Below are positions 1 to 35,060 of a stretch of 64,000 nucleotides of DNA, piece after piece (position 1 is the stretch's first letter; each line of letters opens with the position of its first letter). Below the pieces are notes generated by a model that was given only the letters and a program-made list of their open reading frames with translations, did not search any database and had not been told where the DNA came from. Source of the stretch: a virus; IMG/VR virus record IMGVR_UViG_3300037222_000100, positions 1-64,000 of that record; one strand, given 5' to 3'. Both the position numbers and the translations under genes were made by a program.

Positions 1-1227
1 ATCGCTTGCGGCCGTCTTAGCGATGTACTCGCCGCTTACGCCGCTGATCTGAGGAAAGAGCCCGCGATTGGCCAGCATCTTGTAGATGATGTTGGACTCG
101 GCATAGTCGCCCTTGCCCTTCTTCATGTCGATCTGGCGTTTCTTGTGGATCGAGTGCCAGAAGCGAATCGCCGCGTCGGGCTCGTAGCGCAGAAGGCGTT
201 CCATCTTGTCTGCCATCTGGAGCGCCCATGCGTAGAAGCCTCCTTGTTCTGATTTCACATCATGCACGCGGTTCTTCTCGGGAGGCACGATCCACTGGTT
301 CGTGTCGATGTCATAGCCGGAACGCAGTCCCGGCTTGTATAGGTCATTGGGCTTGATACCTCCGCCGACCACGAAGTCTTGAAGAGGAAACGGCGTTCCC
401 GGCATCTGTCTGCCATCGAGCTTATCTACCATGAGCGCGATCATCTCTGCGCGGGACCACTCAGGAAAAATACGACTGTCGATAAACAAGCTCACGTCGC
501 AGTCCGAGTCCTCTGAATACTGGTACGTAGTCAAACTTCCCGTCAGCACAAGAGTGAGCCAATCCTCCACGTTTGTGTAACCCGCATGTTCGAGTGTATC
601 GTAAATCGACTTCTTGATCCAGTGCGCGTGGAGAGGCTTGAGGACTGGCTTGGTCGCGGCGGGGTTGTCCCATACCAAGGGTGACAGTTCTGCATGGATT
701 TCATCAAGGATGTTGGCTGTGCGAGAGATGTGCCCGCGACCCCGGAACATGTTTGCCGTGTCTTCCATCGAGTGCGTGCCCTCTCCATACCCAATGAGAT
801 GGTCAGCTAGCTCCTCATCATCGCTTGGGGCGATCTGGCCGTACCCATTTTCATGCAGGAAGTGATGGGTCAACCAATAGGCTGTACGCTTGTTGCCATC
901 CTCAAACGCTTGCGCCTGTCCTACGCCATGAGCGAGTGCCGCTGCTGCGTTGGCCATGCTGCCCGTATAGTTGTACTGGTTCTGTGCGCGGCCTAGAGCG
1001 CCCTGTAGGACCTCGGGACGAAGAAGAGCATGGTTGGCCTGCCCATGGGCCGCGAAAGATGCCCGATTGGCTTCTACTGCATCCTCGGCAGTCGGGAAGT
1101 AGGGATCATCTATTTGAGCTTGGCCATTGCCCTCGGGGCTTTCGGCCAGTGTGCTTTGATGTGTGCCCCAACCGGGACCTTCGGGCGTTTCATAGAGACT
1201 CCTTGGTTGTTCGTTTATCCTCGGCAT
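1..1227 (-). CDS. Multi-domain protein, partial (runs off left edge): Fic/Doc-like domain + Pol-beta-type nucleotidyltransferase domain
   Basis: Manually translated open frame from ATG 1227 to window edge (409 codons, missing from ORF track). Contains QAFEDGNKRTA (Doc-type motif) and LTGSLTTYQYSEDSDCDV (GS...DxD NTase motif). Confidence 0.8.
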   Translation of the reverse strand, partial: MPRINEQPRSLYETPEGPGWGTHQSTLAESPEGNGQAQIDDPYFPTAEDAVEANRASFAAHGQANHALLRPEVLQGALGRAQNQYNYTGSMANAAAALAHGVGQAQAFEDGNKRTAYWLTHHFLHENGYGQIAPSDDEELADHLIGYGEGTHSMEDTANMFRGRGHISRTANILDEIHAELSPLVWDNPAATKPVLKPLHAHWIKKSIYDTLEHAGYTNVEDWLTLVLTGSLTTYQYSEDSDCDVSLFIDSRIFPEWSRAEMIALMVDKLDGRQMPGTPFPLQDFVVGGGIKPNDLYKPGLRSGYDIDTNQWIVPPEKNRVHDVKSEQGGFYAWALQMADKMERLLRYEPDAAIRFWHSIHKKRQIDMKKGKGDYAESNIIYKMLANRGLFPQISGVSGEYIAKTAASD

Positions 1228-1867: not shown

Positions 1868-4800
1868 CTACGTATTAGGCTGCGCTTGAGCGTATTCTGT
1901 AGCCCTCTGTAGCAACGCAGGGCGCTCATTCAAGGCGGGATTCTCTACTACGTCATTTGTCAACTGTCGCAAAACGGTGCCTATCTGAGGTCCTTTGAGC
2001 CCCAGAACAAGCAAATCGCTTCCGTTCACAGAGATCATCGATTGGGTGGTCGGAGCACCGGCTTGGCGAGCTTGCTCAACCAGTTCGCGCTGCTGATCAA
2101 CCGTTGCTTGATTGCGCTTGTTCTCTGCACCCTTTCCGGCAATGTCCGCTTCACGCAAGGTCATCAAATCATCTGCCGAATCTCCCACTCGATTCAAAAA
2201 ACGTCTTGCGCCCTTAGGAGAACTGAAATCGGGATACATGTGATGGCTGATGAGATTGTGGACGTTACGAATCTTCGAGACGGGGTAGTTGTACGTTTCA
2301 CGGAGACGTTGCTCGGCGATGTCTGCGCCCACTTTCGCGTGATCGGCACCGACCGGCTGGCCGTCGATCATGCCGGGGTAGTAATGCGTAACCTCTGTCG
2401 CAGGATCGACCCATGATGAAGCTGGCTTGCCAACATCGTGGAGGAGAGCCGCGAGACGGACCTCGGGATCATCTGTCAGATGCGATACGTTGTCGAGCAC
2501 GTTCAGGCTGTGCTCACCAAGGGAGTAGTTGTGATGCGGGTTGCGCTGATCGTAGTCGAAGTTGTTCGCTAGCTCCGGGAACATGTGATGCAGCACGCCA
2601 GTTTCCTGCGCGAGGCGTAGTGCTCCGGCAGGATTGGGGCTTGCGAGGAGCTTGTCTAGTTGCTGCTTGAGCGCATCTGGCGACTCGTTGTCGAGTCGGT
2701 AGGCGTGTTCCTCCATCTCCTTGCGGGTGCGCTCATCCGGCACCAACCCGTGCCGTGAAGCAGCAACGAGAGCGCGTACCAAACGCGTCGGGTCCTCGTC
2801 AAAGGAATCGGGGTGAGTAGTACGGAGGGTATGGGACTCAATATCCTTCGCTCCCCCGTAAGGATCGACAAGTCGTCCCGTCTCAAGGTCAACCGCCATC
2901 GAGTTCGCTGTGAAGTCTCTACGCGCAAGGTCTTTCTCCACTGGTAGGTTATGGTCTACGGTGATTTTGCCCTGGCCTCGTCGTCCACCCTCTTCGTAGG
3001 TGTCCGTGCGCGGCAGAGCGATCTCCACTTCCTGTCCTTTGGTGCGGTACTTGTATGTGCCGAAGCGCTTGCCCTCCCAGTTGACGCTGCCCGGAAGCTT
3101 GTCGAGCACATTCTCAACCTGCTCAGCCGGGAGGCCCGACACCATGAAGTCAATGTCACGCGGCTCCTTCTGAAGTAGAGCATCGCGTATGGCACCGCCC
3201 ACGACGTAGACATGACCCCCGGCCTTACGTAGCGCCTGGAAGGCGTTCCAGGCTGCTCCATCGGCCGCAGTGAGTGTCTTGACGTAGGAGCCAACGTCCG
3301 CCGTGGCGAGCTTCTGTGCCTTACCCTGCTGATTTTCAAGTTCGAGGCTCGTGATCTCCATGTGAGGATGGCTCCAGTACCAAAGCTGCATCATGTGATA
3401 GGTCGAGTACGGCATCGTGGTCGTCGTGTTGATGACGATCTTGCCACCGGGCTCGTAGTAGCCCTCCACGATACCACCCGGCGTGAACTGTCCCATGATG
3501 TCCGAGGTCTTCATACCAGGATGACCTACCGTGATGTAGTCTTTGTCGATGTCGTAGACGAACGGAAGAGGCGCTTCGAGCAGGTCCTTTGGTTCCTTGC
3601 CGCCCGCTGCGGTCACGTAGCGATGCCCGCTCGTATTGACCATGCCCATGCGGCGCACGAGCCGTTCTCCCTCTGGCGAGTCTGCATGCGTGTACGCATT
3701 CGGGTAGTGAAGCAGCATCCGTTGCAAAAGGGCCGTGCCTACGCCTCGGTTATGCACTGCCGAATGCACCATGACAACCTCCGCCTCGTCCTCGCCGGGG
3801 CGCACAACGCCATAGCCGACGATCTGACCATCGAGATAGCCGCCGTAGAAGACATAGCCCTCGTCGCGATTGTAACCCCAGAGCTTGGAGTAGAGGTCGA
3901 AGTCTTCGACAGTCGAAGCTTCGCGGAAGGAAGCTAGCGGTTGCGCCGTAGGTTCGCTGTTGCGAAGACGAAGAGGAAGAACGTCGTCTTTGTCGTTGAG
4001 CGTTGGGAAGTGACCGTCATCCAGGTAAGCGGGAGCCGCATCTAGGGGATCATGTTGCTTGTTGTGCAACACGTACTGGCGAAAGTTCGGCAGCACGACA
4101 CCGCATGTCGAACACGTTAGCTCACCCTGCGGCTCGCCATCGAATGCCTTCTGGGGCTCGGCTTCCGGGTTGCCCTTGTCGTATTCCTCCGTCCACTCCT
4201 TGTTCTTCATGCGGTCGTTCATGTCCGTGCCGCCGGGATACTCGGCTAGACGAAGACCGAAGTCGTCAGCCCATTCCTCTAGCCCCGCTCGTGCGGCCGG
4301 GTTGAGCTTGCCCTGAATCTTCGCCATCTTGCCTTCGACCACGATACGTCCCTTGCTGCCACGGAACGGTGCCTCGCTTAGCTTGAGTCCGCCCTTGGTG
4401 GTGTACCAGTAGGACTTCTTGGCTCCAAAGTCATCGTGGATGGGTTGACCGCTACCGTCCACGAGCCCGCCCCAAGTCCAACCCACGCGCTTGCCGTAGT
4501 CCTGAAGCTCTTTGACGAGCCCGCGCAGTGCGATGTTGCCTTCTACGCTCCAGAGAGCATCACGCCCTCGCACAGTGACGTAGCCCACCGCCATAGGACC
4601 CTCATGGTTCGCCGGAGTCCCAGAGTGATCGCGTAGTTCATCGTGGCTATGCATCGGCGAGACATGAAGCTGACCATTGCCGTAGAAGAACTTGTACTCC
4701 TTCTCGTTTGGTTTCTCCATCGAAAGCTCCAGATCGCTGCGCGTATCGTGGAAGTAGCGATTTTCGAAGTCTTGATTGGCCTGCGGCTCTTCGCCGGGGT

Positions 4801-5317
4801 ATGCGTCTCCCCACTCGCCGCTATCCGCCTGCTTAGGGATGCCTCGCTCCAGTGCCGCATTGGCTCGACGTGCGAACGTTTCTGCACGCGGATGATCCGG
4901 ATATGTCTTGATGCGGAAGTCACGATAGAGAGGGCTGTCTGCGCGTGTGTAGATAATCGGCCCTGAGCGATGGCGCTTCTGTTCGGGCTCGAAGTCATAT
5001 GGCTCGTCGTCCTCATCCAACAGACTCGTCTTTGCGGTCGTCGGCTCGTAAGAGTTCTCGTCACCAGTGAGATCGATAACGTACTGCTTGTCCGGAGACA
5101 CCCAAAAGTAGTGACCGTGCTTAGTACCCACAAAGCCACCGAGCTTGTCGGCTAGCCACTGCGACGTGACGAAGCACTGACCGGCACTAGCCTGAGGGTG
5201 TCCCTGGAAGTCAGGATGACGCGTCTCGTCTCCCCAGGCGTGTTCGGCCGCACTACGCAGTTCGTGCAGTTTGTCCTGGGTGATGGTATCGGGATCAAAG
5301 CCCATACTCATTACCAC
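1868..5317 (-). CDS. 1149-aa polyprotein: papain/transglutaminase(YunG)-like N-domain, C2H2 finger, GNAT acetyltransferase, class II CCA-adding enzyme + HD domain
   Basis: GQCFVTS..HYF..IDLT; CSTC..H..H; HNRGVGTALL; VGGAIRDALL..DIDF, RRDFTAN, DEDPTRLVRA; LLHDVGK. Confidence 0.85.
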   Translation of the reverse strand: MVMSMGFDPDTITQDKLHELRSAAEHAWGDETRHPDFQGHPQASAGQCFVTSQWLADKLGGFVGTKHGHYFWVSPDKQYVIDLTGDENSYEPTTAKTSLLDEDDEPYDFEPEQKRHRSGPIIYTRADSPLYRDFRIKTYPDHPRAETFARRANAALERGIPKQADSGEWGDAYPGEEPQANQDFENRYFHDTRSDLELSMEKPNEKEYKFFYGNGQLHVSPMHSHDELRDHSGTPANHEGPMAVGYVTVRGRDALWSVEGNIALRGLVKELQDYGKRVGWTWGGLVDGSGQPIHDDFGAKKSYWYTTKGGLKLSEAPFRGSKGRIVVEGKMAKIQGKLNPAARAGLEEWADDFGLRLAEYPGGTDMNDRMKNKEWTEEYDKGNPEAEPQKAFDGEPQGELTCSTCGVVLPNFRQYVLHNKQHDPLDAAPAYLDDGHFPTLNDKDDVLPLRLRNSEPTAQPLASFREASTVEDFDLYSKLWGYNRDEGYVFYGGYLDGQIVGYGVVRPGEDEAEVVMVHSAVHNRGVGTALLQRMLLHYPNAYTHADSPEGERLVRRMGMVNTSGHRYVTAAGGKEPKDLLEAPLPFVYDIDKDYITVGHPGMKTSDIMGQFTPGGIVEGYYEPGGKIVINTTTTMPYSTYHMMQLWYWSHPHMEITSLELENQQGKAQKLATADVGSYVKTLTAADGAAWNAFQALRKAGGHVYVVGGAIRDALLQKEPRDIDFMVSGLPAEQVENVLDKLPGSVNWEGKRFGTYKYRTKGQEVEIALPRTDTYEEGGRRGQGKITVDHNLPVEKDLARRDFTANSMAVDLETGRLVDPYGGAKDIESHTLRTTHPDSFDEDPTRLVRALVAASRHGLVPDERTRKEMEEHAYRLDNESPDALKQQLDKLLASPNPAGALRLAQETGVLHHMFPELANNFDYDQRNPHHNYSLGEHSLNVLDNVSHLTDDPEVRLAALLHDVGKPASSWVDPATEVTHYYPGMIDGQPVGADHAKVGADIAEQRLRETYNYPVSKIRNVHNLISHHMYPDFSSPKGARRFLNRVGDSADDLMTLREADIAGKGAENKRNQATVDQQRELVEQARQAGAPTTQSMISVNGSDLLVLGLKGPQIGTVLRQLTNDVVENPALNERPALLQRATEYAQAQPNT

Positions 5318-11594: not shown

Positions 11595-12926
11595 CTACTT
11601 GTAGCGTTGATCACGCCAGAGCAGAACGCCATTGACGTAGGTCGCATGCTCGATGCGGAAGAGCCCATCCGGGTGCAGCGTGACCGTAGCAAAGCCCTGC
11701 TGCCAGTCCGGAAGGACGGAGAAGTCCGGGAACTTCCGAACGCCTTTACCGCCCTGCTGATCGATCCGGCACATGCAGCCTGCTTCGGCTGCGGTCAGGG
11801 TCGTGGTGCCACCCTCGATGTCGTGCGTCGTCTTGTAGACGAGGGACTGCCGATGGGAGTGGCCGACAATGACGCTGTAGCCCAGGTGTTCGAGAGTGGC
11901 CAGTGCCGTAACGCCAGAGCCCTGTCGAGCGATCCAACCGTGACGCACGGCGAGCTTGCTGCTTAGGCTGATCTGCGCCATGTCGTATGGCCCTTCCGGA
12001 TCGACATACGTGATGCCTAGCTCATCTAGACGTAGCAGATGCGGGAGCGTGAGAACCTTCTCGTCCTCCTCGCCCTCGGGAGTCGCACGCTTGACGCCAT
12101 AGAGAGGCTGTACCGATGGCTTGTCGAGAAGGATGTTACGGATGCGCTCGTCGTGGTTACCCGGCATGAAGAGCCACTCGGTATCGAGGCTCGCCGTGCG
12201 ATAGCCGCGAAATAGATCGTAGCCCGACTGGACACACTCGTTGACCTTAGCGGTGTTCTCGGGATCGAGCCTGTGTCGGCTGATGTCCGGGAAGTCCACT
12301 TTGTCGCCGAGAGCTACGCCCTGGTCCGGCTCGTTCTCTTCTAGCCAACCACAGAACAGGTAATGCAGCTTCTCGTCATGGAAGGGTGCTTGCTGATCGC
12401 CCGTGACGACGATAAGCTTGGTCTTGTTGTTCGAGGCTTTCGCTCGCGGAGGGGCGGTCCATCCATCGGAGCGCGCAGGGAAGACTTGTAGCTCAGGACG
12501 CTTACGCTTGATATGGAGCTTCGCCTGGTGATAGGTGACCGGTCCCTCTTGGCTCGGTCCATCCCACTCGTTGACAGTCGCGCCGTCGATCACCCAGTCT
12601 TTGGGATTCAGACCGCGCTCACGCAACATCGTATCCGGGTCATCCAGCACAAGCCCAGTCCCGGCTGGCGTGGTCACGTCGGCCTGATCGCCATCGTGAT
12701 AACGCACGCTGCCCTTTCGTGAGTCCACCGGACATGGTGCTCCGATGTGATTGCGTTTCCGGAACCTACGAATTGACTTCTCGGTGGTCGGCAGATCGAG
12801 GTCTTCAGTGATGCGATGTGCCACTTCGCTGTTGGTGTCGCCTGCCTCTATCAACTGCTTGGCGAGAGAGAAGTATGGCTCCTGGTCAAGACGACTCTGG
12901 CTCTGTTGACTCACTCTTGTCATCAT
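11595..12926 (-). CDS. Calcineurin-like metallophosphoesterase with N-terminal HTH
   Basis: GDQQAPFHD, LGDKVD, GNHD, RHG, GHSHR motifs. Confidence 0.8.
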   Translation of the reverse strand: MMTRVSQQSQSRLDQEPYFSLAKQLIEAGDTNSEVAHRITEDLDLPTTEKSIRRFRKRNHIGAPCPVDSRKGSVRYHDGDQADVTTPAGTGLVLDDPDTMLRERGLNPKDWVIDGATVNEWDGPSQEGPVTYHQAKLHIKRKRPELQVFPARSDGWTAPPRAKASNNKTKLIVVTGDQQAPFHDEKLHYLFCGWLEENEPDQGVALGDKVDFPDISRHRLDPENTAKVNECVQSGYDLFRGYRTASLDTEWLFMPGNHDERIRNILLDKPSVQPLYGVKRATPEGEEDEKVLTLPHLLRLDELGITYVDPEGPYDMAQISLSSKLAVRHGWIARQGSGVTALATLEHLGYSVIVGHSHRQSLVYKTTHDIEGGTTTLTAAEAGCMCRIDQQGGKGVRKFPDFSVLPDWQQGFATVTLHPDGLFRIEHATYVNGVLLWRDQRYK

Positions 12927-15516
12927 CCTTTGGGTCGAGGTCTAAATCTGGGTCGATGTCGGCGTGAAGGCTGTCGATGATCGAGTACTTCTTCTGCTGC
13001 TCGATTCGAACGCGACGCTTGCTTGGGGTTTCCACAATGTACTCATCGCCGCTGGCAGTCTTCTGAAGCTCTTGGTTGTCCTTCAAGACGAACTCTGTCT
13101 CTGCTGGTGCGTCCACTATAGCAGCGGTCTTCTCCGTATCCTCGCGCTCCTCGGTAGCCCTAGCCTCCACAATGCGCCAAGCGATCTCATCAGAGACTTT
13201 CTGCTGATACGTCGCGGCATCCTTCGGCCAGTCTGCGTGAATGTCCTCTAGTTCCTCACGCGAGAGGTCCGCGTACTCGGTCGTCGTGCGATCAGCGATG
13301 AAGTCCGTGAACGCGAGGCCGAGGTCCGGGTTCTCCTCCATGAAGGCATCGAAGTCCGATTCCTTGCGTGCGCTGATCTTCCACATCGTCTCGCCCGTCT
13401 CCGGATGCATGGCCGTGTTGTAGGTCAAACCAGGACGGCGCTCGTTGGATACCTGGGGTACGGTACCAGCCGGTCCAGGGGCCATCGGGCTAGCTGCGGG
13501 TGGTCCGCCCCCTGGAGGCGCTGTGCCCGGACCGGCTCCCAATCCAGGCGGTGCTGGCGGCATGACTATCCCTGCGCCTCCTGGGCCTGCTCCTGCGCCT
13601 CCTGCGGCCCCACCTGGGGGTGCGCCTCCACCTGGTCCACCAGGACCCGGCATGCCCTGCTCTGCGCCCTGCGGGGCTCCGCCTCCAGCGCCCGGACCGT
13701 GGACCAGCACAGACTCGCACTCAGCCTTGAGGTCGAGCGGCACCGGCAAGCCCTGGACGGTAAGCGCGTAGTACGTCTCCATCTTCGCACGCTGCTGCGC
13801 GATGGTCTGTTCCTTCAACTCGCGATTGTAGGCTTCGAACTTGTCCTTGTACTTCCACTCGACGCCGATCAAGAGGTCCTCGTTCGGGAGCGGCACGCCC
13901 ATCTGACGTAGCTCCATGAGGAACTGACGCTCGGTCTGCTCGTCGCGTAGATCGAAGGTCGAGAATTTCAACTCGGGCACGAGAAGCTTCGGGACCTCCT
14001 TGATTTCCTTGTTGCCCTCCTCGTCGTAGATGACGACCCTTTCGAAGATCGGGACGCGTGTCGAGCCCTTCATTTCGTAGTCCTGATGACCCTGTGCCTC
14101 GGCGACAACCAGAGCGCGCTCTTTGTAGTGGTTCTTGAGCATGTTCTGGAAGGTCTTCAAGACCTGATTCATGAACTCGGCCTGGAGGGCGCTCGAAGCA
14201 TACGGCTGCGAGTTCGAGCCTGCGGAGAGGAGCGACGGGTTGACGCCGAAGACCTGCATGATGCGACGCTCGATGCGGTCGAAGTCGTCGCCCAGACGCG
14301 GCATCTGCTCGCGCCCGAAGACCGATGTGATGTCGAGCCCGAAGTGGTGGACCATGAGGCGGAAGTCCGACGACAACGCGATGTCGAGGTCGTCTCGAAC
14401 GGACTCAAGCTCAGAAGGCGTCGGCAACCACGGCGGTAGGCCATCGCCCATGTCCATGATGCCAAGCTTCGCTAGGATGAGCGGCGAGTACAAGCGCTCG
14501 GCGATAGCTTCCTGAGACGCGAGTAGCTTTTCCTCGTAGAGCAGCGTGCGGAGTCCACGCAGGAGGATCGGCGTGCCGTGGTCGTCCCAGTTGTTCATCT
14601 TGTTGGCAACCTGGCGGATCATCACCGGAGAGATCGGAATGTGCTCGCCCTTGAGCAAGTACGGGATGAGGTCCGTGTACTGCTCCTGGAGTAGGTACCA
14701 CTCTCGCGCGGGACTCTTGGTCTGAGCGATGCGGCGCAGGTAGTCCGGTGGAACGATCTTCAACTGCTGCGTATTGAGGAACGGGAAGTTGTCGATCACG
14801 ACATCCTCCGGGTTGATCAACTCCTCGTGCTCCCAGACGCCGAGGTCCTCATCGAAGGAGCCGAGCGGGAATGCCTCGCCAACGCACCAGTACTCGCGAC
14901 CGAGGGCCACGAGGAAGTCAGCGTATTTGAGGTTGTTGAGGAATATCTCCTCGTAGACATCGGTGAGCCCTTTGTCCTTGCACTCTAGCTCCATGCCGAT
15001 CAACGGGAAGCGAGTGAAGATGTCGATCAGCGTCGGCACCAGGTAATGGGTCGCGTAGTACAGACGTAGCCACTTGTGAAGCTTGTGGCGATGGCCCTCG
15101 TCCGCGACGTTCCACGGGAGGCCCGATAGGTCCCAGTACTCCAGTGGGTCATAGAAGCGCGGAATCGCGTTGTAGGCGTCGCCGCCCATTGGCGAGGAAG
15201 GATTGATACCCCCCGTGCGCTGCATCTTCTTCGAGAGGATGCGTTTACTGCCCATGGCCTGTACCTTGGCCTCGTTCTCCTTGAGCATCCTACGGACCTC
15301 AGGAGAGTTGAGATCGTCGCCGTCTCTGATCGGCTTGCCGACTGAGTAAGACAGCTTGTCAAGACCCACCCCTGCGGCGCGCTGAAGACGACGGGTCGTG
15401 TCAACGGCCTCACCGTATGACTGCGCGGCACGACCAGAGTGCCGGGGCATCACTAGACCATTTTGCCGAAGACGCTGCAACTCGGCGTCCAACCGCTTTG
15501 AATCATACTCGGGCAT
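12886..15516 (-). CDS. Portal protein with Gly/Pro-rich and acidic C-terminal extension
   Basis: Position downstream of terminase; LGREYWCVGEAF, GTPILLRGLR, RIMQVFGVNPSLL are portal-like. Confidence 0.75.
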   Translation of the reverse strand: MPEYDSKRLDAELQRLRQNGLVMPRHSGRAAQSYGEAVDTTRRLQRAAGVGLDKLSYSVGKPIRDGDDLNSPEVRRMLKENEAKVQAMGSKRILSKKMQRTGGINPSSPMGGDAYNAIPRFYDPLEYWDLSGLPWNVADEGHRHKLHKWLRLYYATHYLVPTLIDIFTRFPLIGMELECKDKGLTDVYEEIFLNNLKYADFLVALGREYWCVGEAFPLGSFDEDLGVWEHEELINPEDVVIDNFPFLNTQQLKIVPPDYLRRIAQTKSPAREWYLLQEQYTDLIPYLLKGEHIPISPVMIRQVANKMNNWDDHGTPILLRGLRTLLYEEKLLASQEAIAERLYSPLILAKLGIMDMGDGLPPWLPTPSELESVRDDLDIALSSDFRLMVHHFGLDITSVFGREQMPRLGDDFDRIERRIMQVFGVNPSLLSAGSNSQPYASSALQAEFMNQVLKTFQNMLKNHYKERALVVAEAQGHQDYEMKGSTRVPIFERVVIYDEEGNKEIKEVPKLLVPELKFSTFDLRDEQTERQFLMELRQMGVPLPNEDLLIGVEWKYKDKFEAYNRELKEQTIAQQRAKMETYYALTVQGLPVPLDLKAECESVLVHGPGAGGGAPQGAEQGMPGPGGPGGGAPPGGAAGGAGAGPGGAGIVMPPAPPGLGAGPGTAPPGGGPPAASPMAPGPAGTVPQVSNERRPGLTYNTAMHPETGETMWKISARKESDFDAFMEENPDLGLAFTDFIADRTTTEYADLSREELEDIHADWPKDAATYQQKVSDEIAWRIVEARATEEREDTEKTAAIVDAPAETEFVLKDNQELQKTASGDEYIVETPSKRRVRIEQQKKYSIIDSLHADIDPDLDLDPKDDDKSESTEPESS

Positions 15517-26299: not shown

Positions 26300-26360
26300 T
26301 TAGATGGGTCCCGTTCCATGATGTCACCCATTATGGGAGAGGTCGCGCCCGGATTGTTAG

Positions 26361-26429
26361 TCGCTCCCGCTGGAATCGAACCAGCGCCTAGAGGGTATGA
26401 TCCTCCTTGGCACCCATAGCCTGAGAGCG
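26361..26429 (-). tRNA. tRNA with CAU anticodon (Met or Ile2), short D-arm
   Basis: Cloverleaf, GGTTCGATTCC T-loop, loop AUCAUAC. Confidence 0.7.
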
Positions 26430-26565
26430 TGGCTTTCCCCTACCGCTTGCACGGGATAGCGGGTACTCGTGTAACACGTCATCTACGTGCTCCCTGATCC
26501 GGGGTGCGGCACATAGCAAGGATGACGTGAGTTAGAGCAGCGTCCTCTTGCGAAGGTCTGTTCTC

Positions 26566-26745
26566 CTAACCGTGTTTCTTCTGACCTGGCTCACCAGGTC
26601 CAAGAGGCTTACCAACGCGGGCGCGGTAGCGCTCGCACTTGGTTTTGTTGCGGCCCCACTTACGGTCGCCACCGCTTTTGCGGCGGTTGTTCCTTTTCAT
26701 CAACTTGGCGTGAGTTACGTCAAGCGGGTTTGCCCGATTGGGCAT
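26566..26745 (-). CDS. Highly basic 59-aa protein
   Basis: AAGGAG RBS; MPNRANPLDVTHAKLMKRNNRRKSGGDRKWGRNKTKCERYRARVGK... Confidence 0.6.
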   Translation of the reverse strand: MPNRANPLDVTHAKLMKRNNRRKSGGDRKWGRNKTKCERYRARVGKPLGPGEPGQKKHG

Positions 26746-26809
26746 GTGTATCTCCTTTGGCTAGGGTTACCTAGTCATGGGGATACCTCCTTGCGTTGGT
26801 TGATGTTGA

Positions 26810-26880
26810 AACGGATAGTCGGAATCGAACCGACATCAAGAGCGTGGAAGGCTCTTGTCATACCATTAGACCATACCCGC
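26810..26880 (-). tRNA. tRNA-Gly(TCC)
   Basis: Cloverleaf, loop CUUCCAC. Confidence 0.9.
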
Positions 26881-26962
26881 AGGTGCGCCATATCGTCCTA
26901 TCATCCGTAGGTACGGCACACACCTACGTAGGCTCGTTTTCACCGCATGCTGTTACTCACGA

Positions 26963-27034
26963 AGCCCACTCTCGGAATCGAACCGAGTTCGCCGGTTTAC
27001 AAGACCGGAGCATCACCATTTATGCTTAGCAGGC
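26963..27034 (-). tRNA. tRNA-Thr(TGT)
   Basis: Cloverleaf, loop CUUGUAA. Confidence 0.9.
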
Positions 27035-27038
27035 GAAT

Positions 27039-27423
27039 TGTATCGATAAGCCGGATTCTGTCATTGGACGATCATCCATCTCAGCCTTAGCTGCCGCCTC
27101 ACAACTGCGGTTCCCCAACCCGATATGACCGTAGGCTTTCCAACCCCTTCAATAGGTGGCCCGTTTTGCGGTATAGCCCTTGCGGACAACAAGCCTGCTC
27201 ATCGCAGACACGGCTTTCGCCATCAGGGGTACCACCGCCCTTAGGTTTCTCTGTATGGGTTTCATCCTCGACGCTTTGCGTGCGGTACAAACGCCTCTCG
27301 GCTCCCGCCTCTTTTCGCGATGTCTGTTGATCGCGGCTTCCTCAGCCGCAGACCGAGTTTCCTCGGCCAGGATGTCCGGACTTTCCTCTGGAGGGATCGG
27401 ACCTCCAGCGACCGTCTGATACA
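27039..27423 (-). ncRNA. rnpB: RNase P RNA (phage-encoded, atypical)
   Basis: CR-I GAGGAAAGUCCGG, CR-IV AGAUGGAUGA, CR-V ACAGAAUCCGGCUUA, terminal helix UGUAUC/GAUACA, P3 hairpin CUGGAGG/CCUCCAG. Confidence 0.9.
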
Positions 27424-27424
27424 G

Positions 27425-27494
27425 AGCGGTAGATGGGACTCGAACCCACAACCTCCACCATGGCTATAGTGGGTACCTCGCCTGAGGCTACCGC
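27425..27494 (-). ncRNA. tRNA-like RNA (Gly-like acceptor) with abnormal anticodon loop
   Basis: GCGGUAG/CUACCGC acceptor, canonical T-arm, minimal D-arm, stem CCACUAU/AUGGUGG closing AGCC. Confidence 0.65.
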
Positions 27495-27599
27495 TGTTCC
27501 TACTGAATGTTCACGCACTGCCCAGGATGACCTCCGCCTGGAACCGCTCGTTGTTCTGCTTCGCACGCACGACGCTTAGCCCCTATGTCGGGTTGCCCT

Positions 27600-28259
27600 T
27601 CAGGCGTATTCGGCGGTTCGGCGGTTTCCGGCGTCACCTGTGATTCCCTCGGATTTACGGCTAAAGCGACCTTCCTTCCAATCGTTCAAAAGGGTGTACT
27701 CGTAACTCGTGATGTCTCCGTGGGCGATCAGGTCGAAGAGGACGGGCCTCTCCTCCTTCAAGCTTGCAACAAGGTGCTCTGCAATGTCCCTCTCGGCCTC
27801 CGTGAGGTAAGGCGCAATGGATTTGCCATTGCCGCCATCTCGTTTGTGCAGGTCCCGATGCCAACCGACGCAGGCGGGGATCGTGCAGAACGACCGAGGC
27901 GCGTAGCTGATGTAGTCTGGAAGCTCCAGCATCAGCCAGCGAGGAACGAAGTGGTGTCGTGTAATGCGGCCGTCGCACTCGCCCTCCTCGCCGTGGTAGC
28001 GACAGATAGGAGAATGCTGCGTGCCAAGTACGCGTTCCTTCTTGGCCTCGATCACATCATGCGGGATCAGCCCACTGCTGTGATTGAGGCGGTACAGGAC
28101 CGCTTTCGTGGAGAGGCGTTCATCGAGTAGATCATCGATGTCCGCGTCCTCGACCTCCGCGACGAGTTCTAGCTGCTCGACCGTAGCTTCGCCGTCATAC
28201 GAGTCGAACCAGTAGACCTGTCCCGTGACGGGATGGGTCCAATCTCGTGCTCGCGACAT
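27600..28259 (-). CDS. HNH-like endonuclease
   Basis: CRYH..CDGRITRHHFVP..TIPACVGWHRDLH; ATG just after TATACT. Confidence 0.6.
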   Translation of the reverse strand: MSRARDWTHPVTGQVYWFDSYDGEATVEQLELVAEVEDADIDDLLDERLSTKAVLYRLNHSSGLIPHDVIEAKKERVLGTQHSPICRYHGEEGECDGRITRHHFVPRWLMLELPDYISYAPRSFCTIPACVGWHRDLHKRDGGNGKSIAPYLTEAERDIAEHLVASLKEERPVLFDLIAHGDITSYEYTLLNDWKEGRFSRKSEGITGDAGNRRTAEYA

Positions 28260-28285
28260 GCCTACAGTATACAGCACACGTCAAG

Positions 28286-28357
28286 TAGCCCGACAGGGAG
28301 TCGAACCCTGGTTACGGCGCTGAGAACGCCGCGTTCTAACCGCTGAACTACCGGGCC
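28286..28357 (-). tRNA. tRNA-Glu(CTC)
   Basis: Cloverleaf, loop UUCUCAG. Confidence 0.9.
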
Positions 28358-28493
28358 ATACAGGGGAGCGCTCTACTGCTGACGCTACACGCCACAAGCA
28401 TCGCTGATCGGGCGATCCTTTCTTTCGTCGTAGTACTCCGACTTCAGACTTCGGTGACATGACAGGAATTGCACCTGCGACCTCTCCCCGTAA
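28358..28493 (-). ncRNA. Circularly permuted tRNA-like RNA
   Basis: Order: GGGAG, T-arm, 3' acceptor CAUGUCAC, ~58-nt insert, 5' acceptor GUGGCGUG, D-arm, CUCCC. Confidence 0.7.
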
Positions 28494-28502
28494 GGAGTGA
28501 AG

Positions 28503-28575
28503 TAGTCCCTCTCGGATTCGAACCGAGAACCAACCGCTCATAAGACGGGTGCTCTAACCATTGAGCTAAAGGACC
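28503..28575 (-). tRNA. tRNA-Ile(TAT)
   Basis: Cloverleaf, loop CUUAUGA. Confidence 0.85.
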
Positions 28576-28603
28576 ATATGGGCCTCTCGCGAGGCCCAAG
28601 GGG

Positions 28604-28972
28604 TCAAAGATGCGATACCGCCTTTGGAGCAATTTCAGCCAAGGCCGGTGTTTGTGTTGTTTCGTTGTGCGTTGTCGTCCCACAGTCAATTTTGCTGACC
28701 CCGTAGTAGGGACGTTCGCCGTACCATGGTTCGCGATATGGTCGCGGATATGGTACTGGGTATGGGAGAGGATACGGTCGTGGAACCGAGATGGGCTGAT
28801 TCGCCAGTTCCTTCTTTAGGAGCCGAATGCAGTCCACCGTGGTCGGATTCCGACCGTGCCCTTTCCAGTCGAGCCCGCAGAGCGAGCAGACCGTCGATAC
28901 TGCGACGGGTTCAGGTTTGGTTGCTTTCTTTTGCGTTGCCATGATTGGTGACGAGTCCCTTTGACACTTCAC
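28604..28972 (-). CDS. Hypothetical protein with PYP repeats (start uncertain)
   Basis: CSLC; PRPYPLPYPVPYPRPY. Confidence 0.5.
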   Translation of the reverse strand: MKCQRDSSPIMATQKKATKPEPVAVSTVCSLCGLDWKGHGRNPTTVDCIRLLKKELANQPISVPRPYPLPYPVPYPRPYREPWYGERPYYGVSKIDCGTTTHNETTQTPALAEIAPKAVSHL

Positions 28973-29168
28973 CGCGATTTTCTCGTTTCTCGGTCATGCC
29001 GCCCCAAACACGTCCACGGGCAGAGTCGAGCACATGGCCCGCCTGCGTCGTACTCATGTTGAGCGCGTGACTGATCTGCGGGACGGTACTGCCCTCAAAG
29101 TACATCTTGAAGGCATCGTATTCGCTCGCGTTGAGACAATACACCGATTCGATGTCTCGCCTCGCCAT
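28911..29168 (-). CDS. Sigma-70 region 4-like HTH protein
   Basis: LNASEYDAFKMYFEGSTVPQISHALNMS; AGGAGGG RBS. Confidence 0.6.
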   Translation of the reverse strand: MARRDIESVYCLNASEYDAFKMYFEGSTVPQISHALNMSTTQAGHVLDSARGRVWGGMTEKRENRGEVSKGLVTNHGNAKESNQT

Positions 29169-29205
29169 TTCACCCTCCTTTAGGATGTTGGTTTTGGTAA
29201 TGCAG

Positions 29206-29278
29206 GGTGGCCGGAGGGAATCGAACCCTCATCGCGTGGATCACAACCACGAGTTCTAACCGTTGAACTACGGTCACC
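29206..29278 (-). tRNA. tRNA-His(GTG)
   Basis: Cloverleaf with G-1:C73. Confidence 0.9.
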
Positions 29279-29282
29279 ATGA

Positions 29283-29360
29283 TGCGCCGAGGGGTTTAGG
29301 TCCTTCCCCATCCGGGATTCGATGTACCCGTGCTCTTGAACCCGGTTGAGCTACCGACGC
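29283..29360 (-). ncRNA. Degenerate tRNA-like RNA
   Basis: Acceptor and D-arm present; enlarged anticodon loop; non-canonical T-loop. Confidence 0.5.
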
Positions 29361-29362
29361 GA

Positions 29363-29437
29363 TGCCCCCTCTGGAAGTCGAATCCAGACTATGGACGGGT
29401 TTAGACCGTATCCCTCTGCCAATTGGGGTAAGGGGGC
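29363..29437 (-). tRNA. tRNA-Leu(TAA), short variable arm, C33
   Basis: Leu-type D-arm; loop UCUAAAC. Confidence 0.75.
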
Positions 29438-29546
29438 GTAAACCCTGCCGACTTGCCATTACTTGTCGCGCCCTGACGGGCGCAGTACAGTGGTTGGTTC
29501 ACTACTCGGCTGAACGAGCATCAGCGTCAAGTCGAATCAGGGCTAG

Positions 29547-29617
29547 CTGCGGGTCAGGGATTCGAACCCCGATTGACTGGTTCAAGGCCAGCGGTCCTGC
29601 CGTTGGACGAACCCGCA
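29547..29617 (-). tRNA. tRNA-Gln(TTG), C33
   Basis: Loop CCUUGAA. Confidence 0.85.
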
Positions 29618-29776
29618 AAGGATCGTTGCATCTGCGGATTCTTGACACGTAGAAGCTCCTCAGTCAGCATCCGCACAATACTGTATTTGTACCGATGGAC
29701 AGCGGTTTCACGTTCTTGCACGATCCGCTCGTGCCTCTTCTTGGTGATGAACCACATGGGTCCAGTATAGCGAAAG

Positions 29777-29848
29777 CTGCGGGACAAGGATTCGAACCTC
29801 GATCCTCTGGCTCAGAACCAGATCACTTGCCGTTAGTACGATCCCGCA
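29777..29848 (-). tRNA. tRNA-Gln(CTG)
   Basis: Loop UUCUGAG. Confidence 0.9.
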
Positions 29849-29882
29849 ATGCGGCCCGGAAAGAATCTCCGGGCCAATTCTG

Positions 29883-29969
29883 TTACGACGTGAGACGCTC
29901 GACCGTCCAAGAGACTAGACCGGCGCTGAGCCAAGCGAGAACGCTACCGCCGCCTATGGTTACTGCCAT
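29883..29969 (-). CDS. 28-aa hydrophobic peptide
   Basis: GAGGGGGTG RBS; MAVTIGGGSVLAWLSAGLVSWTVERLTS; downstream hairpin. Confidence 0.5.
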   Translation of the reverse strand: MAVTIGGGSVLAWLSAGLVSWTVERLTS

Positions 29970-29989
29970 GTTTCACCCCCTCAAAGGGA

Positions 29990-30062
29990 TAGCAGTCCCC
30001 GGATTCGAACACGGGCTCTCAAGGTTATGGGCCTTGAATGGTCACCAGACCACCTGACTGCA
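29990..30062 (-). tRNA. tRNA-Met(CAT), initiator-like 1:72 mismatch, C33
   Basis: U1/U72 mismatch; loop CCCAUAA. Confidence 0.75.
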
Positions 30063-30064
30063 AG

Positions 30065-30138
30065 TACTCTCCCTCGGATTCGAACCGAGACTGGACCGGG
30101 CTTGAACCGGCTTCCTCTACCAATTGGGATAGGAGAGC
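30065..30138 (-). tRNA. tRNA-Leu(CAA), short variable arm
   Basis: Loop UUCAAGC. Confidence 0.85.
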
Positions 30139-30147
30139 ATATACGAA

Positions 30148-30187
30148 GTGATTATGCTAACCTCACACATGCGCGAGGCGTAAATTT
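30148..30187 (-). promoter_or_regulatory. Internal promoter/operator copy 1
   Basis: AAATTT..GCCTCGCGcATG..GAGG..cATAATCAC, similar to 35992-36033. Confidence 0.5.
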
Positions 30188-30260
30188 CCGGAGGAAGCAA
30201 CCGCTTTCGGTAGAGGCCCTAGGGGGTCCCCTCCAAATTTTTTGGCTACGATCAGCCGAG

Positions 30261-30335
30261 TCCTGTCGGGAGGATTTGAACCTCCGACTCCTCGCGTATC
30301 AGACGAGTGCTCTAACCAGACTGAGCTACGACAGG
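30261..30335 (-). tRNA. tRNA-Ile(GAT)
   Basis: Loop CUGAUAC. Confidence 0.9.
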
Positions 30336-30407
30336 TAGTTTGGGACTCCGCCGCGTCACTTCGGCAGTTTCTAGCACCGGGGCTTAGTCCGGGTCCCGAG
30401 AGTGCAG

Positions 30408-30475
30408 AGCCGACGCAGGAATCGAACCTGCCGGACCCCGGTGCATGCACCTAGTCTGGACCCCAGTCGTCGCAC
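30408..30475 (-). ncRNA. tRNA-like RNA lacking an anticodon loop
   Basis: Canonical T-arm GCAGGUUCGAUUCCUGC; palindromic GGUGCAUGCACC in place of the anticodon arm. Confidence 0.5.
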
Positions 30476-30482
30476 TACACAG

Positions 30483-30556
30483 CGGACCCAGGCGGAATCG
30501 AACCGCCGACACCTGCCTTTTCAGGGCAGTGCTCTACCTGACTGAGCTACAGGTCC
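30483..30556 (-). tRNA. tRNA-Phe(GAA)
   Basis: Loop CUGAAAA. Confidence 0.9.
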
Positions 30557-30823
30557 CTACTTTTGCCCGGCCAAGATGTCTTCGACCTGATCGAGCACCT
30601 TGGGCATGGACTCCTCTACTTCGCAGTCGATGCACTTCTTGCTGCCTCTGATTGCACGCTTCACGCAATGAGGTTCCTCACAAAGGATTCTCGTGGGCCG
30701 CATGAACTCTGGAATGTCGAAGTCTTCTTGCATCTTCATCTTTCGTCGTCTCAGGCCCGCCAGCAGAACGATGATCGCGCCTCCAGCGAGGAGGTTCTTC
30801 TGCTCTTGGTACATGCCACCCAT
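30557..30823 (-). CDS. Small Cys-rich protein (start uncertain)
   Basis: CEEPHC..CIDC; TGCTATCAT upstream. Confidence 0.45.
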   Translation of the reverse strand: MGGMYQEQKNLLAGGAIIVLLAGLRRRKMKMQEDFDIPEFMRPTRILCEEPHCVKRAIRGSKKCIDCEVEESMPKVLDQVEDILAGQK

Positions 30824-30849
30824 TAGGCGACGGATGATAGCACTTTCAG

Positions 30850-30934
30850 CGGAGGGACAAGGAATCGAACCCTCAGGACGCAAGCCCTGGCCTAGTTTTC
30901 AAGACTAGTTGCCGACCATTCAGCGCGGCCCTCC
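30850..30934 (-). tRNA. tRNA-Ser(TGA)
   Basis: Long variable arm; loop CUUGAAA. Confidence 0.9.
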
Positions 30935-30986
30935 AGGAGCGGACCGCCCCGAGAGCCATTTCAGGCCGGGAGACGCTACCGCTCTA

Positions 30987-31057
30987 AGGCGTCGTCCGGA
31001 TTCGAACCGGAGTGAGTCGGGTTGCAGCCAACTGCGTAGCCTCTCCGCCACGACGCC
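30987..31057 (-). tRNA. tRNA-Cys(GCA)
   Basis: Loop CUGCAAC; U73. Confidence 0.9.
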
Positions 31058-31063
31058 AATGTA

Positions 31064-31429
31064 CTACAGCACTACAAGACCTTCTTCGACCTCGGTGTGA
31101 CAGTTGCCGCAGAGAAGAGCACACTTCGCGGCCTCTGCCTGAACCGTCTTCCAGGCGCGAGTAAATCCCTTGGCCGCAATGCCAAAGGACTTCGTGGTCG
31201 GATCGAGATGATGAAATTGAAGAGCACCTTCGCACCGATCATACCCACACACTTCACATCGACCACCATGTTCTGCGACTAATTTCCGCTTGATCTCGCG
31301 TCGCTTCTCAGCGATGCGGTCGCTCTCGCACGGACGACAACGCCAACTGTTAGCGGCGTCAGGTCGCCTCCAATGAGACACGTCGCCGTGCCTCTTGCAG
31401 GTCTTGATCTGTTGCTCCACCTGTGGCAT
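31064..31429 (-). CDS. HNH endonuclease
   Basis: CEVCGY..LQFHHLDP..KCALLCGNCH. Confidence 0.85.
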   Translation of the reverse strand: MPQVEQQIKTCKRHGDVSHWRRPDAANSWRCRPCESDRIAEKRREIKRKLVAEHGGRCEVCGYDRCEGALQFHHLDPTTKSFGIAAKGFTRAWKTVQAEAAKCALLCGNCHTEVEEGLVVL

Positions 31430-31457
31430 TATACCATGGTGTACGCCAGACTTGTAG

Positions 31458-31532
31458 CTCACGGCGCTGGAATCGAACCAGCCTCATACTCGGGTAACAG
31501 CCGAGCGCATTCGCCTTGATTGCTAGCCGTGA
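31458..31532 (-). tRNA. tRNA-Asn(GTT)
   Basis: Loop CUGUUAC. Confidence 0.85.
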
Positions 31533-31545
31533 ATGCAGAGGAAGA

Positions 31546-31764
31546 TCACTCTTCCTCGTCCAGCTTGATGCAATTTGCGCAGTTACACAGCGCGGGCCGA
31601 CCTACTCCTCGCTCGCCTTCATGCGTCAGGCTATGGAGAGGGGCTGACCTACGAGTTCCTCGCTTGGGATGGATGCTCTTGATGCGCTCGTTGAGCACGG
31701 GGCATCGATAGAGATGCCCCTGTCCCGATGGGTACGACTTGTGACAGTACGAGCACCAATCCAT
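31546..31764 (-). CDS. Small Cys/His-rich protein
   Basis: CSYC..H..C, CNCANC; leaderless after TATCCT. Confidence 0.5.
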   Translation of the reverse strand: MDWCSYCHKSYPSGQGHLYRCPVLNERIKSIHPKRGTRRSAPLHSLTHEGERGVGRPALCNCANCIKLDEEE

Positions 31765-31788
31765 GTGGATAGGATATCAGAAATGAAG

Positions 31789-31873
31789 CGGAAGGTGTGG
31801 GATTCGAACCCACGGTGGCTTTCACCACGCCGAGTTAGCAACCCGGTACATTCGGCCTCTCTGCCAACCTTCC
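31789..31873 (-). tRNA. tRNA-Ser(GCT)
   Basis: Long variable arm; loop UUGCUAA. Confidence 0.9.
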
Positions 31874-32000
31874 AAATGGTGGACGTGCCCGGACCAGAGG
31901 CCCGAAAACTTTTGCCCTTTCGTGCTGGTATGTTCGTCACATTCAGCCGGGTTACCATACCAGTGGTACCCAACCTGATTCAGGGCATTCTGTACGTCCA

Positions 32001-32073
32001 AGCCCTTGGCGGGATTCGAACCCGCGCAAACCCGCTTAGGAACCGGGCACTCTGTCCGCTGAGTTACAAGGGC
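32001..32073 (-). tRNA. tRNA-Arg(CCT)
   Basis: Loop UUCCUAA. Confidence 0.85.
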
Positions 32074-32084
32074 GTACTACGAAG

Positions 32085-32490
32085 TGGACCCTGTGGGAAT
32101 CGAACCCACGTCTCCGGCATTCGTATTGCGTTACTATCTAGCAGCTTTGGGACAGGCTTGGCCCGTCTCCACCACTCGGTTTACGTCCGAGAACGGCACC
32201 GGGCCGAAGCCCGACTGATGCACCACCTGGTTTGAGTCCAGGAACTTGTCGCGGGGTGCTACCAACCGTTTTCTGTTCCGAGGCGTACGGTGACCCGGCT
32301 CTGACTAAACCAGAGCGAGAGTTGCCTCGCGAGCCGAGAGCGACGGGGAGTGCCCCGGTACGGGGTCTTCCATGAAGCTCGCGGGGATCGCGAGGGTGTC
32401 TGTGTTGCCTGTTATGGCTTGTGTCAGGTAGGTGTGACGACCGCTGCGTAACAACAACCGAGTCTTACCAGATCGATACCTGTAAGGCCC
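32085..32490 (-). ncRNA. ssrA: tmRNA
   Basis: GGGCCUU/AGGGUCC-A acceptor with G3:U, T-arm GUGGGUUCGAUUCCCAC, AUAACA before resume codon, tag ORF 32409-32305. Confidence 0.9.
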
Positions 32491-32629
32491 ATGCGGGGGC
32501 GAGGCTAGATAGCACCCCGCCCGCCGATGCTACTCGACTAACTGGGTACTGCCTGGATCACCCCCTGTAAGTTGAAGGACAAGGTAACCTCAGATGGCCC
32601 GTCTAGAAAGGGCGAAGTCAGCTACCTAG

Positions 32630-32701
32630 TAGACGATACTGGATTCGAACCAGTGACTTCCACGTTGTCACCGTGGCGCTCTCCCACTGAGCTAATCGTC
32701 T
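32630..32701 (-). tRNA. tRNA-Val(GAC)
   Basis: Loop GUGACAA. Confidence 0.9.
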
Positions 32702-32771
32702 AGGCTGCCCGTTGCCACTGGTAGTCTAGTCCAGATGCCGGGCTCTCCACAGGCATTCAACCTGGGAGCAG

Positions 32772-32842
32772 TACTCGGTGAAGGAATCGAACCTTCGTCG
32801 TCACGGTGTAAACGTGATGCTAAACCACTCAGCTAACCGAGC
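32772..32842 (-). tRNA. tRNA-Val(TAC)
   Basis: Loop UUUACAC. Confidence 0.9.
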
Positions 32843-32898
32843 ATGTGCCCGCCCACAGAGGGACAGGCATCGCACGCCGGGCGAACCCTAAACGTGAG

Positions 32899-32972
32899 CG
32901 GGACCTACCGGACTCGAACCGGCGACCTCTGCCGTGACAGGGCAGCGCTCTAACCAACTGAGCTAAGGACCC
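32899..32972 (-). tRNA. tRNA-Asp(GTC)
   Basis: Loop CUGUCAC. Confidence 0.9.
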
Positions 32973-33050
32973 AAGGGTGCCCCTGCGGGAGTCATCGTAT
33001 TGGGGATGACGGGCAGGGGACTTGTATGCAATTGGCCGATCTAGTCGGCA

Positions 33051-33117
33051 GCGGGGCGAGAAGGAATCGAACCCTCGCCTGCGGGTTTGGAATCCGCAGG
33101 TCCATCCAGGCGTCCCG
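33051..33117 (-). tRNA. tRNA-Trp(CCA), degenerate D-arm
   Basis: Loop UUCCAAA; T-arm intact; imperfect acceptor. Confidence 0.55.
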
Positions 33118-33124
33118 ATTACTT

Positions 33125-33526
33125 TTACTGCGCAATCCCGCAAGCGGTCTTGATTTCGTCAATGATGTTCAGTGGAACGTGAGAAATCTGTTCAAATTCT
33201 GTAGCCGTGTAGAGAGCGGTAAGATGTTCCGTGGAACAGATGGCCTGCTGTTCAGTAAGAATGGGGGTCTTTTCCTTTTCGATCTTCCTCCGAAGTTCAA
33301 GGCTTCGTGTCGAAGACCAGGAACCTTCCTTACCAAGAAATCCTTCGCCTTGCTTAGGATGGGGTACGGCTACAGCTTCCTTCTGAAGTTCCTTTGAGGC
33401 GTGCGTCAAGCCACTCGTAAGTGCATTGACTACACGTTCCCGCTCAACTTCGTATCCAGCGAAGAAGCCAATACCACCTGCGACTAGCACTGCTACGACG
33501 ATGAGGAGCTTCGCTTTGGTTGTCAT
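33125..33526 (-). CDS. Membrane-anchored protein
   Basis: N-terminal TM; TTGACA-17-TAGACT promoter, leaderless. Confidence 0.7.
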   Translation of the reverse strand: MTTKAKLLIVVAVLVAGGIGFFAGYEVERERVVNALTSGLTHASKELQKEAVAVPHPKQGEGFLGKEGSWSSTRSLELRRKIEKEKTPILTEQQAICSTEHLTALYTATEFEQISHVPLNIIDEIKTACGIAQ

Positions 33527-33562
33527 GCCCGTAGTCTACCGAACCACCGCTTGCTTGTCAAG

Positions 33563-33631
33563 CGGGAGATCGAGGAATCGAACCCCGTCCTAGAGTTTTG
33601 GAGGCTCCTTGGCTGCCATAGCCTATCTCCC
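33563..33631 (-). tRNA. tRNA-Trp(CCA), short D-arm
   Basis: Loop CUCCAAA. Confidence 0.8.
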
Positions 33632-33952: not shown

Positions 33953-34071
33953 CAGTTATGTAGGAGAAGGTCATGGTTTTATTTGGTCACCATGACCTTC
34001 ACCCCAAGAGGCCGGAGTCTGACGAAGTACTCGCGGGGTGATCAACTCCCCGACCGCTCCTCGTCCGGCCA

Positions 34072-34143
34072 AGCCAACACTCGGAGTCGAACCGAGTTCT
34101 CTCGCTTACGAAACGAGTGCATCACCAAGAATGCTTTGCTGGC
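34072..34143 (-). tRNA. tRNA-Thr(CGT)
   Basis: Loop UUCGUAA. Confidence 0.9.
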
Positions 34144-34337: not shown

Positions 34338-34343
34338 ATCAAA

Positions 34344-35017: not shown

Positions 35018-35060
35018 TAGTCGGCACGGGTTACCATGCCGAGGTCATACCGGTTGCTAC

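Follow-up and report, generated by a model that had tools for sequence, protein, structure and literature searches.

Host defences often destroy transfer RNAs (tRNAs). Phages encode repair enzymes, and CCA enzymes are counted among such factors (PMC7824862); the assumption is that phage repair enzymes are produced once infection is under way. Healing of 2',3'-cyclic phosphates by the HD domain is cited in PMC10673834 as known for the E. coli CCA enzyme, and cleavage of ejected head proteins by a prohead protease has been documented in other phages (PMC10052503). No virion-borne CCA enzyme was found in the literature searched. Here we describe a long open reading frame (ORF) in the IMG/VR virus record IMGVR_UViG_3300037222_000100. 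The window, by which we mean the whole stretch of 64,000 nucleotides analysed, makes up the first part of a phage contig of 167,869 bases, labelled G000 at its full length. The ORF lies on the minus strand in the head-assembly region and joins, in this order, a YunG-family Cys-His-Asp domain, two alpha/beta modules, a zinc finger, a GNAT domain, a further module (module 6), a class II nucleotidyltransferase (NTase) and an HD domain (Table 1). We consider it probable (about 55%), from the distribution of a short motif at the module joints, that this polyprotein is modular head cargo processed by the prohead protease. Residue numbers are counted from GTG 5317, the start of the version with 1,149 amino acids (aa).

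Joint motif and head-gene context

The joints between the modules, labelled J1 to J6, bear a [K/R/H]-x-[A/S] motif that is common to the protease/scaffold, the portal and other head proteins. Among the relatives of the polyprotein the motif was present at J1 in 100%, at J3 in 81% and at J6 in 99%, with random windows giving 31-42%. Modules of ART, Fic, GNAT-like and Zn type were found inserted at J3 or J6, each accompanied by a second copy of the motif. Proteins lacking the YunG domain start with the motif as a short leader in 30 of 35 cases (random ORF starts: mean 8.3, maximum 17), free YunG genes end before the motif, and stand-alone CCA genes mostly carry a leader ending in R-x-S.

Within this genome head and cargo proteins carry the motif in excess (z 5.6-6.9), and replication and tail proteins do not. 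The pattern was chosen after these proteins had been viewed, which counts against our proposal and leaves the phages I3 and E3 as the only independent test. With the pattern fixed beforehand, the head proteins of I3 and E3 gave z values of 5.1-6.8 and their other proteins -0.5 to 1.0.

The capsid protein is 57% identical to that of the cluster C mycobacteriophages, to which this uncultured phage is related by sequence. These phages (Ceeclamvirinae, e.g. I3) and Rhodococcus phage E3 share with it the portal-protease-capsid order and the motif enrichment, whereas I3 and E3, unlike this phage, have neither a CCA enzyme nor a YunG domain. The interval between the portal and protease genes spans 3-7 kb in E3 and I3 and approximately 80 kb here, where it holds several motif-jointed proteins. 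By sequence, no solved relative of the head protease was found. The occurrence of the motif in head proteins, including those of the YunG-less I3 and E3, together with the retained leaders and the location between portal and protease, points to the prohead protease rather than to self-cleavage.

The nucleotidyltransferase and HD domains

A preliminary description, made from the sequence alone, had proposed a complete class II tRNA nucleotidyltransferase with an HD domain at the C-terminal end. The motifs agree with the class and with intact HD ligands, and most elements of a complete CCA enzyme were found. Motif A (GGxVRD, DxD) and the third carboxylate are present, with D721, D723 and E765 conserved in 89 of 90-91 sequences, as are the RRD of motif B and the EDxxR template of motif D (D842 in 90/90, R845 in 89/89 and R848 in 89/89); the roles of such catalytic and templating residues have been described (PMC3925840, PMC2910056). 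The basic/acidic motif R770-x-D772 is followed by a flexible loop of 23 residues, the absence of which marks CC-adding enzymes (PMC2910056). The metal ligands of the HD domain (H..HD..H..H..D) are near-invariant and PF01966 scores above its cut-off.

Two motifs of the neck deviate from the CCA consensus and qualify this completeness. The Arg-Phe that follows EDxxR in solved enzymes is Val-Ala here, with Arg in 0 of 192 family sequences. The ERxxxE of motif E, a published mark of CC/CCA enzymes (PMC2910056), reads DAxxxQ in this clade; other clades show changes there as well, and ERxxxE is found in 60 of the 192 sequences. From its match to the bacterial consensus we infer that ERxxxE is ancestral; the family tree was midpoint-rooted, built in quick mode and without an outgroup. 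None of the curated NCBIfam CCA models reached its cut-off, the best being TIGR02692 (E 1e-59). The family thus supplies natural variants of two neck motifs that are considered fixed in CCA enzymes.

Other assignments were tried. A poly(A) polymerase, which the preliminary description had named as one outcome that would overturn its view, is contradicted by motifs and profile scores alike: the hhGRRFxhhH-type signature is absent (the family has G-K-x-F-G-V), there is no sRxxxE, an HD domain is present and the pcnB score is lower. A CC-adding enzyme was ruled out on motifs. An A-adding enzyme is not supported either, with no Arg at the sRxxxE place and no CC-adding partner in the phage genome, which encodes a single class II NTase. 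Full CCA addition and a CCA/HD-like way of working are likely from the motifs, although we do not file the protein as a proven member. By analogy with the E. coli enzyme, its HD domain may heal cyclic phosphates.

A 3' CCA is encoded in 0/32, 0/46 and 0/36 of the tRNAs of three family genomes, which fits the enzyme without proving a need for it, because in I3 only 1 of 32 tRNAs carries CCA and yet no CCA enzyme is encoded; I3 in this respect weakens the case for our proposal. As a separate observation, a C follows the discriminator in 20 of the 32 tRNA genes of the window (26360-36440), and the position after that is mostly T, likewise in two relatives. One additional tRNA-like match at 34788-34882 was missed by ARAGORN.

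Probable processing and alternative readings

Cleavage by the prohead protease, which we regard as rather probable, would take place after the Ala or Ser of the motif inside the prohead. J1 and J6 are the likeliest cuts on the sequence evidence. These two cuts would free the YunG domain and a CCA/HD enzyme of approximately 480 aa, equal to the stand-alone form seen in relatives, and the middle modules may remain together as a folded carrier. The released enzyme would be likely to build or rebuild CCA on tRNAs, with the HD domain healing 2',3'-cyclic-phosphate ends. Injection with the DNA, so that the enzyme counters the host attack on tRNA early, is put forward tentatively, at somewhat less than even odds; late-made soluble copies would, in addition, mature the tRNAs of the phage itself. 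That a large phage family packs a CCA and end-healing enzyme into the capsid within a polyprotein punctuated by protease sites and delivers it together with the DNA, so that tRNA ends are repaired before phage genes are read, is, as a whole, doubtful.

Several further observations weigh against processing. The K/R-x-A form is weakly represented at J2 (8%) and J4 (48%). The GNAT fold (aa 454-572) encloses J4 and J5, and J3, J5 and J6 end predicted strands, so that some of the motif conservation may have a structural cause. Of 13 proteins ending with module 6, 12 still have J6. The model of aa 1-680 has a predicted template modelling score (pTM) of 0.77, which suggests packed modules, and the leader of the capsid protein fits the motif inexactly. 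The portal-protease interval also holds many small non-structural genes. No virion proteomics showing cleavage at the motif, nor processing papers on E3 or cluster C, were found in the literature.

In a rival reading the multidomain protein is produced during infection and stays soluble and uncut; the CCA domain works while fused and matures the phage tRNAs, and the motifs are structural strand ends or relics of head ancestry. The pTM, the strand positions, the joints within the GNAT fold and the retention of J6 at protein ends speak for it, and the lack of CCA in all 32, 46 and 36 tRNAs implies a need after transcription and not at injection. We nevertheless find this unlikely, since it leaves unexplained why J1, disordered in both structure models, is conserved and retained as a leader, why stand-alone CCA genes mostly keep their R-x-S-ending leader, why insertions duplicate the motif, and why the motif is specific to head proteins in three phages. 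Cutting by the protein's own N-terminal Cys-His-Asp domain, which the preliminary description had put forward, is very improbable. Its near-invariant triad and papain/transglutaminase-like fold would suit such a role, but 32 of the 100 aligned sequences, a few of them perhaps truncated, lack the YunG domain, it is a separate gene in loci L011 and L012 with none seen within 8 kb in L010, and altogether it is absent or separate in approximately 30% of relatives. The head proteins of I3 and E3 carry the motif without any YunG domain, and bacterial YunG fusions to UDG, Ada and GNAT domains do not suggest a maturation protease. Self-cleavage was rejected as unlikely on these grounds, the domain not co-occurring in cis with the candidate cut sites throughout the family, I3 and E3.

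A protein that is packaged and processed could also carry an NTase of changed specificity, acting in A-only repair, in the synthesis of extended C/A tails or in tagging host tRNA. Cho et al. 2007 are reported to have obtained a poly(C,A) polymerase from the Bacillus enzyme through changes in helix J, and the absence of the RF arginine in 192/192 sequences, the alteration of the ERxxxE mark and the failure of every NCBIfam CCA model to reach its cut-off all favour such a change. Against it stand the intact EDxxR, loop, basic/acidic motif and HD ligands, the absence of the poly(A) polymerase signature and of the sRxxxE of A-adding enzymes, the lack of an encoded CC-adding partner, and the deeper rows of the family that retain ERxxxE in the same gene context. 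On balance we hold a changed specificity to be improbable, and prefer head cargo with full CCA addition.

Gene structure, modules and known systems

Table 1. Features of the polyprotein gene and its surroundings (window coordinates unless marked G000).
Feature	Coordinates	Strand	Remarks
Polyprotein ORF	1868..5305	-	1,145 aa from likely start; 1,149 aa from GTG 5317
Module 1, YunG-family domain	4838..5305	-	papain/transglutaminase-like fold; Cys48-His69-Asp82
J1 motif K-Q-A	4826..4834	-	aa 162-164; start of predicted disordered linker; best candidate cut site
Module 2, alpha/beta domain	4427..4708	-	aa 204-297
Module 3, small domain	4244..4423	-	ends in J3 (R-L-A); relatives insert ART, Fic or Zn modules at J3
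Zinc finger	4046..4126	-	C402, C405, H418, H/E422
GNAT acetyltransferase fold	3602..3958	-	aa 454-572; variable
Module 6	3305..3595	-	ends in J6 (K-L-A, aa 669-671); usually precedes CCA enzyme; relatives split gene at J6
Class II NTase head and neck	2558..3292	-	D721, D723, E765, RRD, flexible loop, EDxxR intact; RF arginine and ERxxxE lost
HD phosphohydrolase domain	2132..2542	-	H936, H960-D961, H993, H1026, D1058
C-terminal 120 aa, allele A	1871..2229	-	second allele at contig end, G000 167324-167737
Neighbouring cargo-type gene, Fic/Doc and Pol-beta-type NTase	1..1227	-	same joint motifs; cut by contig start
Portal gene	12886..15516	-	polyprotein lies between portal and head protease gene on circular map
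Head protease gene	G000 96235-98625		best match E3 gp77
32 tRNA genes without encoded 3' CCA	26360..36440	-	likely substrates

The ORF at 1868-5317 is a single frame of 1,149 codons without a stop. The open frame agrees with the preliminary description, which had taken this full length for the protein; the probable start is ATG 5305, with an AGGTGG box 8 nt upstream, where relatives start too. Window 2230-2362 recurs at the end of the contig; the genome is therefore a circle of approximately 165.5 kb with window 1-2229 as a side branch, and the last 120 residues (aa 1030-1149) exist as two alleles, both of which preserve the frame. A separate Logan assembly contains a 1,162-aa version with allele B, identical through aa 1029. 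Allele B is present in run SRR7151529, the source being soil. This copy and the relatives with the same module set rule out a frameshift or chimera artefact. The alleles (window 1411-2229; G000 166858-167737) diverge at the conserved HD His-His-Met codons, and the homing endonuclease gene that follows and overlaps differs between them (LAGLIDADG in the window, HNH with allele B), as would result from exchange of the gene end by free-standing endonucleases.

A total of 100 proteins match the N-terminal 680 residues. Modules 2, 3, Zn, 6, NTase and HD are kept together in 85 of 100 aligned sequences, which together with the Logan copy upholds the one-frame fusion first described, and the GNAT domain is missing in about a quarter of relatives. 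Fusion is optional within the family: the gene is divided behind YunG in L012, behind the zinc finger in L013 and in front of the CCA domain in L007. No relative of the polyprotein was found in prokaryote genomes, and hence no host can be assigned. One group of relatives (P0269-P0306) has proteins of 633-636 aa on contigs of up to 135 kb, with DDSSR, ETxxxE and approximately 160 extra C-terminal residues. In L011 (2916-12018) the gene lies between genes for salvage of nicotinamide adenine dinucleotide (nicotinamide mononucleotide transporter, AAA_28, isochorismatase) and an Acb5-like gene.

Pfam matches cover YunG (aa 17-100), GNAT (466-563), PolyA_pol (703-832), RNA-binding (861-918), HD (934-1030) and tail (1085-1137) regions, and the AlphaFold models of the N-terminal half are confident, with predicted local distance difference test (pLDDT) values of 86 and 88. 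The YunG match is weak (E 1e-3, under the Pfam cut-off) and the likeness to the YunG family (PF24585, PF24591) resides in the Cys-His-Asp motif and the fold. Atlas places residues 5-160 in YunG, a family whose members in bacteria come joined to UDG, Ada and GNAT domains; no established function of the family was found in the literature. Fold searches with these residues gave weak and consistent papain/transglutaminase-like matches, the best being 2hly (Z 7.4, root-mean-square deviation (rmsd) 5.9, 131 aligned), with protein glutaminase, arylamine acetyltransferase and LapG at Z of approximately 5. Among the rows of the 100-sequence alignment in which the domain is present, 68/69 have Cys48, 72/73 His69 and 72/72 Asp82, a near-invariance that makes the domain probably an enzyme. 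The preliminary description was right about a Cys-His-Asp domain, and less so in calling it protease-like: a protease is just one option, as the modelled fold also has a deamidase and acyltransferases among its neighbours.

A GNAT fold, as first described, is supported by Pfam and by fold search (aa 454-572; Z 13.8, rmsd 2.2, 116 aligned). Its acetyl-CoA loop R/QxxGxG is present here, the Gly being found in only approximately 55% of relatives. The supposed C2H2 finger holds for three ligands (C402, C405 and H418 are conserved) and not for the fourth, which is His or Glu. Module 3 is a probable shortened repeat of module 2 (hhalign 81%). Modules 2, 3 and 6 as one repeat common to other cargo proteins were considered and rejected, there being support for 2 versus 3 only and none for 2 versus 6. 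Profile search found no second copy of these modules elsewhere in the genome, modules 2 and 3 had no fold match above Z 4.5, and module 6 had no Atlas match.

Among the neighbouring genes, the upstream one (window 5318-6148, minus strand), conserved in all syntenic loci, encodes a zinc ribbon and a D..ExK motif; its product looks like a restriction-endonuclease-like fold, with no family match. The next cargo gene exists in two allelic forms (window 1-1227 and G000 162887-165691, both minus strand), with either Fic/Doc preceding a Pol-beta-type NTase, or 2H/Acb1-like, ART-like and other modules placed behind the NTase, the same motif joining all. Three further motif-jointed proteins occur in the head interval (G000 133176-136826, 149071-151413 and 118839-121334; PcfJ-like, ART-like and 2H/Acb1-like modules). 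The two conserved parts of I3 gp102 / E3 gp76 are two genes here, 60 kb apart (G000 161131-162357 and 100552-105231). A 24-base tandem repeat lies within a 315-aa ORF (G000 146646-147057). The window also encodes a Pnk-like kinase (7582-8061), an RNA ligase (36872-37621) and a ClpP-type protease (38113-38835), the last being a second phage protease and a further candidate cutter.

The C-terminal part shares motifs A and B, EDxxR, the flexible loop and the HD metal ligands with E. coli Cca and M. tuberculosis Rv3907c (TIGR02692, PRK10885), and differs from them in scoring under all curated cut-offs, in lacking the RF arginine and ERxxxE, and in being fused behind 670 aa. Stand-alone tRNA nucleotidyltransferases of phages (phrog_2244; PMC7824862) likewise occur next to a large set of tRNAs and to genes for RNA repair. 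As the preliminary description had held, the fusion sets this protein apart: CCA enzymes of cultured phages match its C-terminal 40% only, and none of the 491 matching phage records covers more than 80% of its length or any part of aa 1-680, a region without a match among cultured phages.

A short motif in protease, scaffold, portal and internal proteins is likewise found in the substrates of T4 gp21, phiKZ gp175 and SPN3US gp245 (AXE rule, PMC10052503). The putative rule here, basic-x-Ala/Ser, would be nearer to that of herpesvirus assemblin than to the Glu rule. If our proposal is true, the basic-x-Ala/Ser rule predicts the injected proteome, which can be checked in cultured cluster C mycobacteriophages, and capsid cargo becomes readable from sequence; a virion-borne CCA/HD enzyme would shift tRNA repair to the first moment of infection.

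The closest parallel is with the polyvalent proteins of phages and conjugative elements (PMC5512222), which are likewise large fusions of unrelated enzymes with variable architecture and a proposed route of packaging, processing and injection. The enzymes shared with them are GNAT and, in relatives and neighbours, ART, Fic/Doc, 2H and Pol-beta NTase, and the shuffling of unrelated enzyme modules in a mobile element bears out the polyvalent character suggested at the outset. The differences are that MuF, ArdC and zincin peptidases gave no match, that processing would occur in trans at a short motif, and that the words 'CCA' and 'papain' are absent from PMC5512222. Each ingredient has precedent, and the conserved fusion is a variant on polyvalent head-cargo proteins.

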